Source: a virus (lineage: Duplodnaviria; Heunggongvirae; Uroviricota; Caudoviricetes). From it: 36,452 bases of DNA. Of this stretch, positions 10,629 through 25,942 are shown piece by piece (position 1 is the first letter of the stretch; each line of letters begins with the position of its first letter). The stretch is from IMG/VR virus record IMGVR_UViG_2711768063_000002; one strand, written 5' to 3'. A model generated the notes under the pieces. It saw only the letters and a program-made list of their open reading frames with translations, searched no databases and was not told where the DNA came from. Both the position numbers and the translations under genes were made by a program.

Positions 10629-12947
10629 TTATACCTGCGCCACGTTATACCAAGTCCCGTTAATGTATTTCTGCACCGGTCTGTAATATACGCCACCAAT
10701 GTTATCGGCAGAGTTTGAGCCGGTATCCTGAACAATAATGCCGGAATATACACACCCGGACGGTGCCTGATGTGTCCATGTCATGCCATTGTTCGCAGGT
10801 TTGTATGTGGCAGCACCACCAAGCCGGATATCCCGGACATAGCGTGAATCAAAATTACTATAGTTAGATGGTGATACCTGCCCGTTAACAGCAAAAGTGA
10901 TGCTGTTATCTGTATTTCTCTGACTGTAAAAATGCCAGCCTGCATCATCACCTAATTCAGCCACCACAGGACGACTTGAGTTTCCCCACAAATTGAATGC
11001 GGCTTCCTTCGTGGATGTATTGCTGCTGCTGACCGTGAACTTTTTCCCGCTACCGGCACGTACTTTGGTACTTGAGACAATATCACCAGTAACACTCAGG
11101 CCATGCCCCATTGATACAGCACCCGTGGCATCATTTATAATCAGTGGTCTTAAATTATTATAAGTACCTAATCTGTCACCTGATTTAGTCAACATAAAAT
11201 AAGTGCTGCTGCCATCATTCCTGATAAAGAATCCATAATTGCCATAAGCAATGCGCAGACCATTAGCACTGAGTGATGTAATCTCACCTCTTGAACGGAG
11301 ACCATAAGCGGAGCTGAGTGATAATTCTTCCTGAGCATCAGTATTACCAGTCGCCCAGCGAACTACCCCGCCCTGTACTGTTTCATGCCAGATAGTGTCT
11401 CCTTCTCCACCACGAAACTTTCTGAGATATTTTTTGCCGCCTCTGGTGCCTGAACATAAGGCCGTAGACATATAGGCATTCTGGCTTCCGCCATCCTGAT
11501 TAATCGTTCCGGTCATTGAGTCGCCCTGACGATTCCAGTCACGACGCCAGCCGGGGGAGTAGCCGTCCCCATGATTAATGTAAGTGAATTGCGCGCTGGT
11601 TGTACCGCCACCACTTGATGTTGTCGGCGTGGTCACTCGGATAGTGATTGCAGATTTAGTTCCCATGACCTCGACGACACAACCAGCCAGGTGGATATCA
11701 CCACATCCGGTATCCGTAATGATTTTGTTATTTGCATATGACCAGGAGCCTTTGCACATCCAGTACGGATGATTAAATGCACCACGGGAATCCAGCCATT
11801 CAATAAACTGAGCGGTTGTCCAGTTTCCGGCTTCAGTGCTCAAAGCGCCGCTATAAGCACGACAGGCACCGATATTTTTCGTGAAGGTATCCTTTCCCGG
11901 AATATCCGCACCGTTCTGATCTTTCTGAAGACGTTTTTCAGCATTGTCATAGGCAGACTTCACTGCTTTTGGCGTTGCCGCGAGGGTTTCAGAATCACTG
12001 TTGGTGGCGCTACTGAGCTGGACAAGACCTTTTCGCGCCGTGGTGGCATCCTGTGCAGTGTATTTCCCGTTAGCAAGGTCATACGCTGTCTTAACCGCCT
12101 TTGGTGTTGCCGCAAGCGTTTCAGAATCGCTGTTGGTGACGCTACTGAGCTGGACAAGACCTTTTCGCGCTGTGGTGGCGTCCTGTGCAGTGTATTTCCC
12201 GTTAGCAAGGTCATACGCGGCCTTTACCGCTTTTGGTGTTGCGGCGAGCGTTTCAGACGTGCTGTTGGTGGCACTACTGAGCTGGACAAGACCTTTTCGC
12301 GCTGTGGTGGCATCCTGCGCAGTATATTTCCTGTTAGCAAGGTCATACGCGGCCTTTACCGCTTTCGGCGTTGCGGCCAGTGTTTCAGACGTGCTGTTGG
12401 TCGCACTGCTTAACTGAGTAAAACCTTTGGCGGTCAGCGAGGCGTCCGGGTGACGTCGTGACTGTTCGTGCTCTGCAATTTTGTCATCAACGTAATCCTG
12501 TGTCGCCATCACCGTTGTGGTGTCAATGGTCAGCTCCACCGAGGCCACACTGCTGACGATGATGACCATGCGACAGGTCTGCGAACGCCCTGAGCCTTCG
12601 GCAAGAGCTGGCTTATAACTTTCGGCCATGTTCGCCACGGCAATTAGCGTTCCCGCATCATCGTACAGGCCAAGTTCACGCATCCAGAAACCGCCCACCT
12701 CCGGCGGAATAACCAGCTCTGCGATAATATAATTACTGTTTCGTTTGTCCTGGCTGATTTTGTTCAGCGCATGTCGCCAGACTTCGTGGATAAGCCCGGT
12801 CTGTCCGGCATCCGGGACAGGCAATTTACCACCGCCATCCCCGACGGCCATCGTGGTAATGTTGACCTTCCGCCCTCCCGGTGCGGTTGCCGCTGCCAGC
12901 TTTGCTGCACCGGCAGTGGTGATAACGGTTTTGAATTTTGTGCTCAT
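10629..12947 (-). CDS. H: Tail fibre protein H (772 aa) with internal tandem repeats
   Basis: N-terminus MSTKFKTVITTAGAAKLAAATAPGGRKVNITTMAVGDGGGKLP as in P2-like gpH; four copies of an approximately 40-aa repeat (KGLVQLSSATNSTSETLAATPKAVKAAYDLANGKYTAQDATTAR). Confidence 0.9.
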   Translation of the reverse strand: MSTKFKTVITTAGAAKLAAATAPGGRKVNITTMAVGDGGGKLPVPDAGQTGLIHEVWRHALNKISQDKRNSNYIIAELVIPPEVGGFWMRELGLYDDAGTLIAVANMAESYKPALAEGSGRSQTCRMVIIVSSVASVELTIDTTTVMATQDYVDDKIAEHEQSRRHPDASLTAKGFTQLSSATNSTSETLAATPKAVKAAYDLANRKYTAQDATTARKGLVQLSSATNSTSETLAATPKAVKAAYDLANGKYTAQDATTARKGLVQLSSVTNSDSETLAATPKAVKTAYDLANGKYTAQDATTARKGLVQLSSATNSDSETLAATPKAVKSAYDNAEKRLQKDQNGADIPGKDTFTKNIGACRAYSGALSTEAGNWTTAQFIEWLDSRGAFNHPYWMCKGSWSYANNKIITDTGCGDIHLAGCVVEVMGTKSAITIRVTTPTTSSGGGTTSAQFTYINHGDGYSPGWRRDWNRQGDSMTGTINQDGGSQNAYMSTALCSGTRGGKKYLRKFRGGEGDTIWHETVQGGVVRWATGNTDAQEELSLSSAYGLRSRGEITSLSANGLRIAYGNYGFFIRNDGSSTYFMLTKSGDRLGTYNNLRPLIINDATGAVSMGHGLSVTGDIVSSTKVRAGSGKKFTVSSSNTSTKEAAFNLWGNSSRPVVAELGDDAGWHFYSQRNTDNSITFAVNGQVSPSNYSNFDSRYVRDIRLGGAATYKPANNGMTWTHQAPSGCVYSGIIVQDTGSNSADNIGGVYYRPVQKYINGTWYNVAQV
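11942..12431. repeat. Four tandem copies of an approximately 120-bp repeat inside the tail fibre gene H
   Basis: Near-identical DNA blocks (for example GCTACTGAGCTGGACAAGACCTTTTCGCGC recurs four times), encoding the repeated tail-fibre peptide. Confidence 0.8.
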
Positions 12948-19780: not shown

Positions 19781-20524
19781 TTAACTGGCTTTCTTTTTCG
19801 GGCGTCCACGTTTTGCCGGTGTCACGCTCCGGGTCTTACGCGGGGCGCGGGTGGCCGCTTTGGGTTGCGGCTCCGGCTTCGGTTTCAGCTCCCGCTCCAG
19901 TCGTTCAATCTCTTTTTTGACGCCTGCCTGACAGTCGAGCTGTGTCGCACGTTGCAGGTGAGCCAGCGCACCGGCGGCATCACCACCGTCACGCAGAAAC
20001 AGACCGGTGATTTTGTGCAGCTTTGCGCGCACTTCATCAGGCATGTCAGCAGCGGCAGTCAGTTCAAGGGTCTCCGTCAGCAGGCGGGTATCCACAGACT
20101 CACCGGCCGCGTGGGCGCGCATGGCCGCGAGCGCCACCTCCTCGGTGAACATGTACGGCGGGGTGCGGCGGTGTTTACCCGGCATGGTCAGACCGTACTT
20201 CAGGGCATAACGGGCAATCTCCAGCGCACCGGCAATATCGCCGGTATCCAGACGCCACAGCATGACCGTCATCAGAATGTCATCCTGTGCACCTTTGCCC
20301 TGCTCCAGCACGCCGTTCACCCACGGCAACCAGAACGGCAGCAGTTCGCGTTTTTTCGCGGCCTTAAGCTCTTTTGAATAAATCGCTTTCAGTGTGCGCT
20401 GGTCTGCGGCCAGCTTGACCAGCATCTGCTCATAGACAGTTGCATGTCGCAGCGGGGCGGCTTCCCGCTGCGCGGTCATCGCTGCCGAGACCCGCATCAT
20501 GTGGCGCTGTGCGGGACTCGTCAT
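19781..20524 (-). CDS. M: Terminase endonuclease (small) subunit M (247 aa)
   Basis: 247-aa ORF at the P2 gpM position with the same length; basic C-terminal tail. Confidence 0.9.
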   Translation of the reverse strand: MTSPAQRHMMRVSAAMTAQREAAPLRHATVYEQMLVKLAADQRTLKAIYSKELKAAKKRELLPFWLPWVNGVLEQGKGAQDDILMTVMLWRLDTGDIAGALEIARYALKYGLTMPGKHRRTPPYMFTEEVALAAMRAHAAGESVDTRLLTETLELTAAADMPDEVRAKLHKITGLFLRDGGDAAGALAHLQRATQLDCQAGVKKEIERLERELKPKPEPQPKAATRAPRKTRSVTPAKRGRPKKKAS

Positions 20525-22687: not shown

Positions 22688-24460
22688 ATGACCATCACCA
22701 CAGACACCACTCTTTTACACGACCCGCGTCGTCAGGCGGCGCTGCTGTACTGGCAGGGATTTTCCGTGCCGCAGATTGCCGCCATGTTGCAGATGAAACG
22801 CCCGACGGTGCAGAGCTGGAAACAGCGCGACGGCTGGGACAGCGTTGCCCCCATCAGCCGTGTCGAAATGAGTCTGGAAGCGCGACTGACCCAGCTCATC
22901 ATCAAACCGCAGAAAACCGGCGGTGACTTCAAGGAAATTGACCTGCTCGGACGCCAGATTGAACGACTGGCACGGGTCAACCGTTACAGTCAGACCGGCA
23001 ACGAGGCAGACCTTAATCCGAACGTTGCTAACCGCAACAAAGGCGGGCGGCGCAAACCGAAAAAGAATTTTTTCAGTGACGAGGCCATCGAAAAGCTGGA
23101 GCAGATTTTCTTTGAGCAGTCTTTCGACTATCAGTTGCACTGGTATCGCGCCGGGCTTGAGCACCGCATCCGCGATATCCTGAAATCCCGCCAGATTGGC
23201 GCAACGTTTTATTTTTCCCGCGAGGCGCTGCTGCGCGCCCTGAAAACCGGTCATAACCAGATTTTTCTGTCAGCCAGTAAAACGCAGGCGTATGTGTTCC
23301 GCGAATACATCATCGCCTTTGCCCGGCTGGTTGACGTTGACCTGACCGGTGACCCGATTGTCCTGGGCAATAACGGCGCAAAACTGATTTTTCTCGGCAC
23401 CAACTCCAACACCGCACAGAGCCATAACGGCGACCTGTACGTCGACGAGATTTTCTGGATCCCGAATTTTCAGGTACTGCGTAAGGTGGCATCAGGTATG
23501 GCCTCACAGAGTCACCTGCGTTCGACCTATTTCTCCACCCCGTCCACGCTGGCGCACGACGCCTACCCGTTCTGGTCGGGTGAACTGTTTAACCGGGGAC
23601 GCGCCAGCGCCGCCGAACGCGTGGAAATCGACGTCAGTCATAACGCCCTTGCCGGAGGTCTTCTCTGTGCGGACGGCCAGTGGCGGCAGATTGTCACCAT
23701 TGAGGACGCCCTGAAAGGCGGCTGCACGCTGTTCGACATTGAGCAGCTCAAACGCGAAAACAGCGCCGACGATTTTAAAAACCTGTTCATGTGTGAATTT
23801 GTTGACGACAAGGCGTCGGTGTTCCCGTTCGAGGAGCTGCAACGCTGCATGGTCGACACACTGGAAGAATGGGAAGACTATGCGCCGTTTGCCGCGAATC
23901 CGTTCGGCTCCCGCCCGGTATGGATTGGTTACGACCCGTCACACCGTGGCGACAGTGCCGGATGCGTGGTGCTGGCACCGCCGGTGGTGGCCGGTGGCAA
24001 ATTCAGAATACTTGAGCGTCACCAGTGGAAAGGCATGGACTTTGCCACCCAGGCAGAATCCATCCGCAAACTCACCGAAAAATATAACGTTGAATACATC
24101 GGGATTGATGCCACCGGCCTCGGTGTCGGTGTGTTCCAGCTCGTGCGCTCGTTTTATCCCGCCGCGCGCGATATCCGCTACACGCCGGAAATGAAAACCG
24201 CAATGGTGCTCAAGGCAAAAGACGTTATCCGTCGTGGCTGTCTGGAATATGACGTCAGCGCCACCGACATCACCAGCTCGTTTATGGCTATCCGCAAGAC
24301 CATGACCAGCAGCGGACGCAGCGCCACCTATGAGGCCAGCCGCAGCGAGGAAGCCAGCCACGCCGACCTCGCCTGGGCGACCATGCACGCCCTGTTAAAT
24401 GAGCCACTCACCGCCGGTATCAGCACTCCGCTGACATCCACCATTCTGGAGTTTTACTGA
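22688..24460 (+). CDS. P: Terminase ATPase (large) subunit P (590 aa)
   Basis: Trimmed to ATG at 22688 (MTITTDTTLLHDPRRQAALLYWQGFSVPQIAAMLQMKRPTVQSWKQRDGWDS), giving 590 aa as in P2 gpP. Confidence 0.9.
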   Translation: MTITTDTTLLHDPRRQAALLYWQGFSVPQIAAMLQMKRPTVQSWKQRDGWDSVAPISRVEMSLEARLTQLIIKPQKTGGDFKEIDLLGRQIERLARVNRYSQTGNEADLNPNVANRNKGGRRKPKKNFFSDEAIEKLEQIFFEQSFDYQLHWYRAGLEHRIRDILKSRQIGATFYFSREALLRALKTGHNQIFLSASKTQAYVFREYIIAFARLVDVDLTGDPIVLGNNGAKLIFLGTNSNTAQSHNGDLYVDEIFWIPNFQVLRKVASGMASQSHLRSTYFSTPSTLAHDAYPFWSGELFNRGRASAAERVEIDVSHNALAGGLLCADGQWRQIVTIEDALKGGCTLFDIEQLKRENSADDFKNLFMCEFVDDKASVFPFEELQRCMVDTLEEWEDYAPFAANPFGSRPVWIGYDPSHRGDSAGCVVLAPPVVAGGKFRILERHQWKGMDFATQAESIRKLTEKYNVEYIGIDATGLGVGVFQLVRSFYPAARDIRYTPEMKTAMVLKAKDVIRRGCLEYDVSATDITSSFMAIRKTMTSSGRSATYEASRSEEASHADLAWATMHALLNEPLTAGISTPLTSTILEFY

Positions 24461-25494
24461 TGAGCAAGAAAAAAGGGAAAACACCGCGACCAGCGGCAAA
24501 AACAATGACCGCCAGCGCCCCGAAAATGGAGGCATTCACCTTTGGCGAGCCGGTGCCGGTACTCGACCGCCGTGACATTCTGGATTACGTCGAGTGCATC
24601 AGTAACGGCAGATGGTATGAGCCACCAGTCAGCTTTACCGGGCTGGCAAAAAGCCTTCGTGCTGCCGTGCATCACAGCTCCCCGATTTACGTCAAACGTA
24701 ATATTCTGGCCTCAACGTTTATCCCGCACCCGTGGCTTTCGCAACAGGATTTCAGCCGCTTTGTGCTGGATTTTCTGGTGTTCGGTAATGCGTTTCTGGA
24801 AAAGCGATACAGCACCACCGGTAAGGTCATCAGACTGGAAACCTCACCGGCAAAATATACCCGCCGTGGTGTGGAGGAGGATGTTTACTGGTGGGTGCCG
24901 TCCTTCAACGAGCCGACAGCCTTCACGCCCGGCTCCGTGTTTCACCTGCTGGAGCCCGATATTAATCAGGAGCTGTACGGCCTGCCGGAATATCTCAGCG
25001 CCCTTAACTCTGCCTGGCTGAATGAGTCGGCCACGCTGTTCCGCCGCAAGTATTACGAAAACGGCGCACATGCCGGATACATCATGTACGTCACCGATGC
25101 CGTGCAGGATCGCAACGATATCGAAATGCTTCGCGAAAACATGGTGAAGTCGAAAGGCCGCAATAACTTTAAAAATCTGTTTCTCTATGCCCCACAGGGG
25201 AAAGCCGACGGCATTAAAATTATCCCGCTCAGTGAAGTGGCGACGAAGGACGATTTTTTTAATATCAAAAAAGCCAGCGCCGCTGACCTGCTGGACGCGC
25301 ACCGCATCCCCTTTCAGTTGATGGGCGGCAAGCCGGAGAACGTCGGGTCGCTGGGTGATATTGAGAAAGTGGCAAAGGTCTTTGTCCGCAATGAGCTTAT
25401 CCCGTTACAGGACAGGATCCGCGAGATAAACGGCTGGCTCGGTCAGGAGGTCATCCGCTTTAAAAACTACTCACTGGACACTGACAACGGCTGA
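24460..25494 (+). CDS. Q: Portal protein Q (344 aa)
   Basis: 344-aa ORF MSKKKGKTPRPAAKTMTASAPKMEAFTFGEPVPVLDRRDILDYVECI; start overlaps the P stop (TGATG); same length as P2 gpQ. Confidence 0.9.
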   Translation: MSKKKGKTPRPAAKTMTASAPKMEAFTFGEPVPVLDRRDILDYVECISNGRWYEPPVSFTGLAKSLRAAVHHSSPIYVKRNILASTFIPHPWLSQQDFSRFVLDFLVFGNAFLEKRYSTTGKVIRLETSPAKYTRRGVEEDVYWWVPSFNEPTAFTPGSVFHLLEPDINQELYGLPEYLSALNSAWLNESATLFRRKYYENGAHAGYIMYVTDAVQDRNDIEMLRENMVKSKGRNNFKNLFLYAPQGKADGIKIIPLSEVATKDDFFNIKKASAADLLDAHRIPFQLMGGKPENVGSLGDIEKVAKVFVRNELIPLQDRIREINGWLGQEVIRFKNYSLDTDNG

Positions 25495-25499
25495 ACATC

Positions 25500-25521
25500 G
25501 CCGCCTGCGGGCGGCTTTTTT
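25500..25521 (+). terminator. Intrinsic terminator after Q
   Basis: GCCGCC-TGCG-GGCGGC hairpin followed by TTTTTT, 6 nt after the Q stop. Confidence 0.7.
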
Positions 25522-25655
25522 ACACCCCGTCAGCACGCCCTCACACGCTCACCTCCGCGCAAAACAGCCCGCAGACACACCAACGCCTCAACGGGCAGAC
25601 TAAGCGCCGTCACGACGCGCTGAAAAAATAAAATCAGCACCACCGCCAGCGCGCA

Positions 25656-25674
25656 GTGCTTTCCCCGCCTCGCC
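25656..25674. other. cos site (19-nt cohesive-end sequence, present here as GTGCTTTCCCCGCCTCGCC)
   Basis: Reverse complement GGCGAGGCGGGGAAAGCAC matches the P2 cohesive end as I recall it; located just beyond Q, as in P2. Confidence 0.6.
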
Positions 25675-25770
25675 CGCCCGCTTCATGGGTCGGTTTTGAT
25701 GCAAATGTATAAGCCAGGCGAAAGCACGTCAGTTTTGAGCTCATTTGTATGAAAGGCCAAATAATAGCAA

Positions 25771-25800
25771 ATGCAATTTGATGCAATTTGATGCAATAAT
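25771..25800. repeat. Three tandem 10-bp repeats (ATGCAATTTG, ATGCAATTTG, ATGCAATAAT) upstream of the FRG-domain gene
   Basis: Two perfect and one imperfect direct repeat on a one-helical-turn register, about 140 bp upstream of the 25943 start. Confidence 0.5.
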
Positions 25801-25942
25801 GTACGCAAAACTACCTTCCCACAGAGTCAAACATAGACTGACAGTTTTCTCTGGTAGTGCTGAATCAGATCTGGCAATCTACATCGCCCTTACGACAACA
25901 TTAAGACAATCAATGTCATTTCTTAAGTAAAAAGGAGTTAGA

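Follow-up and report, generated by a model that had tools for sequence, protein, structure and literature searches.

Three 10-bp units stand in tandem upstream of an FRG-domain gene in a member of the Caudoviricetes (IMG/VR record IMGVR_UViG_2711768063_000002), and they raise the question of whether such repeats serve the gene that follows them or the phage in which they are found. The whole stretch of 36,452 nucleotides that was analysed is referred to here as the window. Read directly, the sequence at 25771-25800 is ATGCAATTTG ATGCAATTTG ATGCAATAAT. We refer to these units as box 1 (ATGCAATTTG, 25771..25780), box 2 (ATGCAATTTG, 25781..25790) and box 3 (ATGCAATAAT, 25791..25800), all on the + strand. 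Tandem Repeats Finder reports the array at 25771-25800 with a period of 10, 2.7 copies, 100% matches and a score of 54, and just six arrays of the 36-kb window, this one among them, reach a score of 40. Thus, direct reading and repeat finding both confirm the tandem 10-bp repeats described in an earlier note on this DNA. The distances given there, about 100 nt beyond the cohesive-end site (cos) and about 140 nt before the FRG gene, are also right: the repeats begin at the 97th nucleotide past the 19-nt cos (96 nt between) and lie 143 nt 5' of the gene. Elsewhere in the prophage, at 11946-12401, there is a 132-bp tandem repeat (3.5 copies, 90% matches, score 688).

By counts made within the window, the motif is not in excess over chance. 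ATGCAAT is confined to the repeats (3 matches observed vs 9.5 expected), and ATGCA-N5-ATGCA with at most one mismatch occurs twice in the whole window, against 4.9 expected. Because these counts are not above chance, the argument that the repeats are non-random is made from their positional conservation across relatives.

The window is a P2-like prophage, with its genes in the opposite order to the P2 map. The 19-nt cohesive-end site GTGCTTTCCCCGCCTCGCC (25656..25674) is the exact reverse complement of annotated P2 cosL, GGCGAGGCGGGGAAAGCAC, and P2, 186 and P4 have a cohesive-end sequence identical to that of the window. Positions preceded by a plus sign are counted from the end of cos, with +1 at 25675, so that the ATGCA cores of boxes 1, 2 and 3 are at +97, +107 and +117. 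A cos-proximal conserved core on the right-end side (25675..25710, + strand) holds another ATGCA, box 0, at 25699-25703 (+25). On the opposite side of cos is the portal gene Q (24460..25494, +), a backbone gene identified from the ORF list and the RefSeq annotation of identical prophages, with its terminator hairpin at 25500-25515 in a terminator scan. We identified genes for both terminase subunits. The large subunit gpP (22688..24460, +) has Pfam matches to Terminase_6N, Terminase_6C, Terminase_5 and HTH_23, and the small subunit gpM is encoded at 19781..20524 (-; PF05944 Phage_term_smal, E = 6e-48). Either is a candidate for the protein that reads the boxes.

Past cos begins a low-GC island (about 25.7-29.3 kb) in which GC content is about 0.33, down from about 0.54. 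Its first gene is the FRG-domain cargo gene (25943..27298, +; PF08867, E = 9e-23), which also matches PDC-S15, a PADLOC candidate defence family (E = 8e-98). The FRG gene is accompanied by two ORFs of 198 aa and 251 aa (27715-29149, -), for which no Pfam or PADLOC match was found. In the FRG leader, GCTGAATCAGATCT (25859-25872) looks, by eye, like the left and conserved part of a possible Cra (FruR) site, GCTGAAnCGnTTCA. The replication endonuclease gene comes after the island. The island sits where P2 has its old/tin defence hotspot (PMC9122126), and the cos region of the window lies, as in P2, between portal gene Q and an old/tin-type hotspot. The window has these features of a P2-type cos region: the 19-nt cos, its place between Q with its terminator and the hotspot, the +25 core, and the boxes at +97 and +107.

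Alignment methods pass over the boxes. In BLAST comparisons against phage genomes, homology of the window to P2-like phages stops at about 25703-25733, and a search with 25690-25945 against the phage collection found no homologue past the cos core. The boxes were found only by anchoring on cos, because they are too short for BLAST. When P2 is read inward from cos at its right end, the sequence is ...ATGCAATCTC ATGCACCCTTGA ATGCAAC..., with motifs at +97, +107 and +119. All ATGCA positions are +25/+97/+107/+117 in the window, +25/+97/+107/+119 in P2, +25/+97/+107/+120 in both P4 and 186, and +25/+97/+107/+116 in PSP3. P2, 186 and P4 are thus like the window in having the +25 core, the boxes at +97 and +107 and a third box at about +117-120; the third box is optional and variably placed.

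To this comparison we added 80 loci from IMG/VR collected via the portal protein, 80 from different GTDB species (portal identity 67-99%) and 80 P4-like loci collected via Psu, all anchored on cos. Dereplication of the P2-like flanks from IMG/VR and the different GTDB species, at less than 30% shared 12-mers beyond +40, left 124 (portal identity 67-100%) that are unrelated to one another past about +45. ATGCA is present at +25 in 118 of these 124 flanks, at +96-98 (box 1) in 93 and at +106-108 (box 2) in 91. The interval +115-121 holds 86 ATGCA starts, some of them as overlapping ATGCATGCA pairs. The background rate farther out is 0.06 per 39 nt. A step of 10 nt between successive boxes was counted in 84 cases, and the number of exact boxes is two in 60 flanks and three in 38.

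The same motif emerges from the flanks in other ways. The top 5-mer in +85..+135 is ATGCA, present in 54/55 flanks, and the consensus around box 1 is (C/A)ATGCAA(A/T)(T/A)T(C). In the 94 flanks anchored on box 1 only, the nucleotides 10-14 nt downstream are A in 94, T in 87, G in 84, C in 94 and A in 83. The positions of box 2 in these flanks carry 1.4-2.0 bits of information, vs about 0.1-0.4 bits at neighbouring positions. Exact ATGCA is absent at box 1 or box 2 in about one quarter of the flanks, where versions with one mismatch are usual; thus none of the boxes is indispensable by itself. Between box 0 and box 1, many P2-like phages (for example 186, PSP3, and loci L007 and L180) and P4 have a semi-conserved palindrome, CGCGCCAGCnCTGGCG, at +48..+66. 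This palindrome is absent from the spacer of the window.

Conservation of the boxes does not depend on the cargo. The orientation of the cargo was judged by the first ORF of at least 100 codons after the boxes. Where this ORF faces away from cos, 55 of 58 flanks have box 1 or box 2 in exact form; where it faces towards cos, 55 of 60 do. Across the 124 P2-like flanks, the 3' ends of inward-facing cargo ORFs cluster at +124 to +135. Thus, variable DNA begins right past box 3, which gives the hotspot a sharp inner edge. Homologues of the FRG protein (59-62% identity) are encoded in lambdoid prophages and, in Klebsiella, beside colicin genes (a colicin island); no relatives were found in IMG/VR, and one homologue was traced to no contig. 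The 300 nt upstream of FRG homologues outside P2-like phages contain no ATGCA.

The P4-like satellites provide a separate view of the boxes. P4 has only the cos region in common with P2 and relies on the P2 terminase for its packaging (PMC9122126, PMC9594776). Its boxes sit between psu and cos, and its hotspot (gop, beta, cII) is on the opposite side of cos (PMC9122126). We identified 73 P4-like loci with boxes between psu and cos, in which the spacer from +35 to +95 diverges, and boxes are kept even where Psu is only 62-64% identical and cos is the variant ATGCTCTCCCCGCCACGCC. A short motif that stays equally far from the nick site in P2 and in P4 is therefore best explained as belonging to the signal that the packaging machinery reads. 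P4 itself (locus L086, 11497-11530) has a hairpin, GCCATGCA-N8-TGCATGGC, with box 2 as one arm, box 3 as the other and a run of T after it. The P4 packaging boxes may thus double as a terminator downstream of psu.

The layout extends to distant phages of the family. Ralstonia phage RSA1 keeps it, with ATGCA at +25/+96/+106/+125. Pseudomonas phage phiCTX has CTGCA or CTGCG, one base changed, at +24/+33/+79/+95/+105. The GenBank record of phiCTX (NC_003278) annotates repeats R3-R6 and IHF sites around cos. Like the window, phiCTX is a P2-family phage with repeats flanking cos and the same right-end layout; its box and cos sequences, however, differ from those of the window. The terminase subunits of the window are 59% (gpP) and 49% (gpM) identical to those of RSA1, which has ATGCA, and 59% and 46% identical to those of phiCTX. 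The box sequence could be tied to neither gpP nor gpM, because the distances to RSA1 and phiCTX are equal.

Other arrangements were seen around cos in other loci. The end region of HP1 has no ATGCA boxes; at its right end (L249, reverse strand), TTTCCGTG is repeated at about +8, +37 and +103 from the end of the record, and these repeats may be a lineage-specific counterpart of the ATGCA boxes. In several species (P2-like loci L171, L173, L176, L198, L199 and L242 from GTDB), cos is 1.5-4 kb downstream of Q rather than about 160 nt. Cargo also occurs between cosL and Q, in RSA1 (L258; PAAR, DUF4123 and immunity genes) and in phiCTX (L259; the ctx toxin). This looks like a second cargo hotspot across cos, on the side used by P4.

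We conclude that the three units are probably boxes 1-3 of an extended cos (packaging) region common to P2-family phages and P4-like satellites, most likely sub-sites for terminase. The ATGCA motif, its fixed distance from cos and its 10-nt phasing are found irrespective of the cargo and are present in P4. From this conservation alone (the fixed cos distance and the sharing with P4), we infer that terminase binds the boxes and that they are required for packaging. The proposed region would consist of the 19-nt cos, a core with ATGCA at +25, a variable spacer of about 70 bp, the boxes at +97 and +107 and usually a third box at +116 to +120. An oligomeric P2 terminase would bind the boxes, which lie on the same face of the helix, together with the box at +25. 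The boxes could be read by gpM, the small subunit, or by the helix-turn-helix at the N terminus of gpP (residues 12-69, encoded at 22688-22900; PF06056, HTH_23), which is a possible sequence-reading module on the large, not the small, terminase subunit. Binding would wrap, bend or loop the spacer of about 70 bp and place the nuclease at cos, a role like that of the R sites in lambda cosB.

The lambda system offers a functional model. Lambda cosB consists of R3, I1, R2 and R1, with the R sites bound by the small terminase subunit gpNu1 and an IHF bend between them (PMC4669245). It resembles the boxes of the window in having several short repeats on one side of the nick, within about 120 bp, with a spacer before the cut site. 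This suggests that the boxes anchor terminase in an analogous way, as a functional analogue and not a homologue of cosB. There is no sequence similarity between the two, and the P2-family boxes differ from cosB in their 5-bp cores, their direct orientation, their 10-bp pitch and the lack of an IHF consensus in the window. The P2-family boxes are, moreover, at the right end of the mature chromosome, and P2 reportedly packages circular monomers, in contrast to lambda. The boxes may be an initiation (cosB-like) sub-site or a termination sub-site.

There is also a published effect for which a larger signal would be suitable. With longer cos flanks, the transduction of P2 cosmids rose more than 1000-fold, an increase left unexplained (PMC9594776). 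This gain fits a signal larger than the 55-bp core that is usually cited. Two cosmid papers give no sequences for the short and long cos fragments. For the distal ATGCA boxes, we found no description in the accessible literature, which covers the 55-bp core only. Outside that scope is a deletion analysis of P2 and P4 cos, reportedly made by Ziermann and Calendar in 1990. A bolder proposal is that the boxes at +25, +97, +107 and about +117-120 are previously undescribed, essential terminase sub-sites, that the packaging signal is about 145 bp rather than 55 bp long, and that it both fixes the edge of the hotspot at about +124 and supplies a -35 element. We put this forward tentatively and think it somewhat doubtful. 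The feature in the window is a set of ordinary cos accessory repeats; the family-wide box map is sharper than any found in the accessible literature, and novelty is not claimed.

The source of transcription of the cargo bears on two other readings of the repeats. The best candidate for a sigma-70 promoter of the FRG gene is weak and lies at 25788..25817 (+), with -35 TTGATG (25788-25793, +114..+119, overlapping box 3), an 18-nt spacer and -10 TACCTT (25812-25817); transcription is predicted to start at about 25824-25826 (about +150). TTGATG-18-TACCTT came top in a rough weight-matrix scan with a score of 8.94, against a median of 7.41 for the best hits of random windows, a score no better than the random-window best. 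The same scheme scored the inferred hexamers of P2 Pold just as weakly. A consensus promoter scan of 25400-26100 found no promoter. In P2, the annotated old-tin transcript starts are at +149/+151, and the inferred -35, TTGAAT at +115..+120, overlaps box 3. The P2 old-tin promoter is thus like the window candidate in its distance from cos, in a -35 that lies over box 3 and in transcription away from cos into the first hotspot gene; past the boxes the two sequences are unrelated, and the promoter of the window is only predicted, and weakly. A cargo promoter abutting or overlapping box 3, as in the P2 old promoter, is plausible. That occupancy of the boxes late in infection also affects transcription of the cargo is speculation.

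The main reading of the earlier note was that a regulator, either repressor or activator, binds the repeats and could in this way set how the FRG cargo is expressed. This idea draws on direct repeats phased at one helical turn upstream of the gene and on a best candidate promoter that overlaps box 3. We consider it highly unlikely, as the boxes keep the same distance from cos beside many unrelated cargoes in both orientations, P4 has them on the non-hotspot side of cos, and FRG homologues elsewhere lack them. The motif is found nowhere else in the prophage of the window, and the cargo island has no evident regulator gene, its other two proteins being without Pfam or PADLOC match. Motif and position are conserved in P2-like phages without FRG cargo, which the note itself had named as counter-evidence. 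The fixed cos distance across relatives supports the alternative that the note offered, in which the repeats belong to the packaging region, and the comparison with the P2 cos flank that it had proposed for telling backbone from cargo assigns them to the phage backbone. The boxes might instead be primarily a conserved promoter module (a -35 or upstream element) for whatever cargo occupies the hotspot. In addition to the TTGAAT implied by the P2 old-tin starts and the TTGATG of the window, with its possible -10 and start near +150, a TGcAATAAT extended -10-like sequence can be seen by eye in box 3. Against such a module, the boxes are kept in the half of the flanks where the cargo runs towards them and ends at +124 to +135. 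In P4 the boxes are downstream of psu and directed away from the hotspot, a promoter has no need of an exact distance from the cos nick, and the promoter scores of the window are not above background. We therefore give little credence to promoter function as the primary role of the boxes.

Another reader of the boxes could be a host nucleoid or architectural protein that bends cos, with terminase reading the 55-bp core only. The spacers between the boxes are A/T-rich and phased at 10 nt, and IHF sites are annotated near phiCTX cos, which would suit such a protein. No IHF consensus (at most one mismatch) is present between cos and the boxes in the window, and we know of no enterobacterial nucleoid-protein consensus that ATGCA matches. 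The layout also persists in Ralstonia and is base-changed in Pseudomonas, for which a co-evolving phage protein is a better fit, and binding by a host protein in place of terminase is accordingly improbable. The perfect 10-bp units, and the presence of two or three units in otherwise identical E. coli prophages, could point to a functionless slippage product (a mini-VNTR); this, or a role as replication iterons, seems very improbable. The ATGCA cores are conserved in position in more than 100 independent flanks in which the surrounding bases are randomised, and slippage accounts for the identical spacers and the change in copy number, not for the boxes themselves. A replication origin was rejected as well: in P2 the annotated origin is a nick site within gene A, the homologue of this gene in the window is about 4 kb away, and the repeats track cos, not gene A. 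The nature of the P2 origin also makes the term iteron-like, used in the earlier note, inapt.

Slippage has probably a more limited part, in the number and uniformity of the units. The region 25690-25945 matches only 7/5426 complete E. coli genomes, all of which carry the same FRG cargo; with no match in the phage records either, the repeats could initially be taken for cargo DNA. The 198-aa and 251-aa ORFs accompany the FRG gene in all seven of these E. coli prophages. One 10-bp unit is missing in three of the seven prophages, which have two boxes; the other intergenic sequence is identical in all seven. The window lineage is unlike P2, 186 and P4 in that its inter-box spacers are identical (ATTTG) and its unit number is polymorphic. 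The repeat is a perfect tandem in this lineage because the spacers, too, are identical. The perfect tandem form and the polymorphism of two versus three units look like the result of replication slippage between boxes. Both alleles keep the +97 and +107 boxes, and both are within the normal range of box number for the family. Because slippage removes one whole unit, the +97/+107 register is unharmed.

The repeats are thus placed in the phage backbone as part of cos, and the tempting reading as a switch for the cargo is removed. If the packaging signal is in fact about 145 bp long, its conservation would reach from phages of enterobacteria to those of Ralstonia and, with a single base change, of Pseudomonas. 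The -35 within the boxes would then serve hotspot promoters such as Pold, and transcription of the cargo would be coupled to occupancy by terminase. The comparison anchored on cos yields a precise map of the P2/P4 packaging signal, with the +25 core, the +97/+107 pair and an optional third box. This map serves those who build P2/P4 cosmids and transducing particles, and it helps to delimit the defence hotspots of P2-like prophages and to study how satellites copy the packaging signal of their helper.
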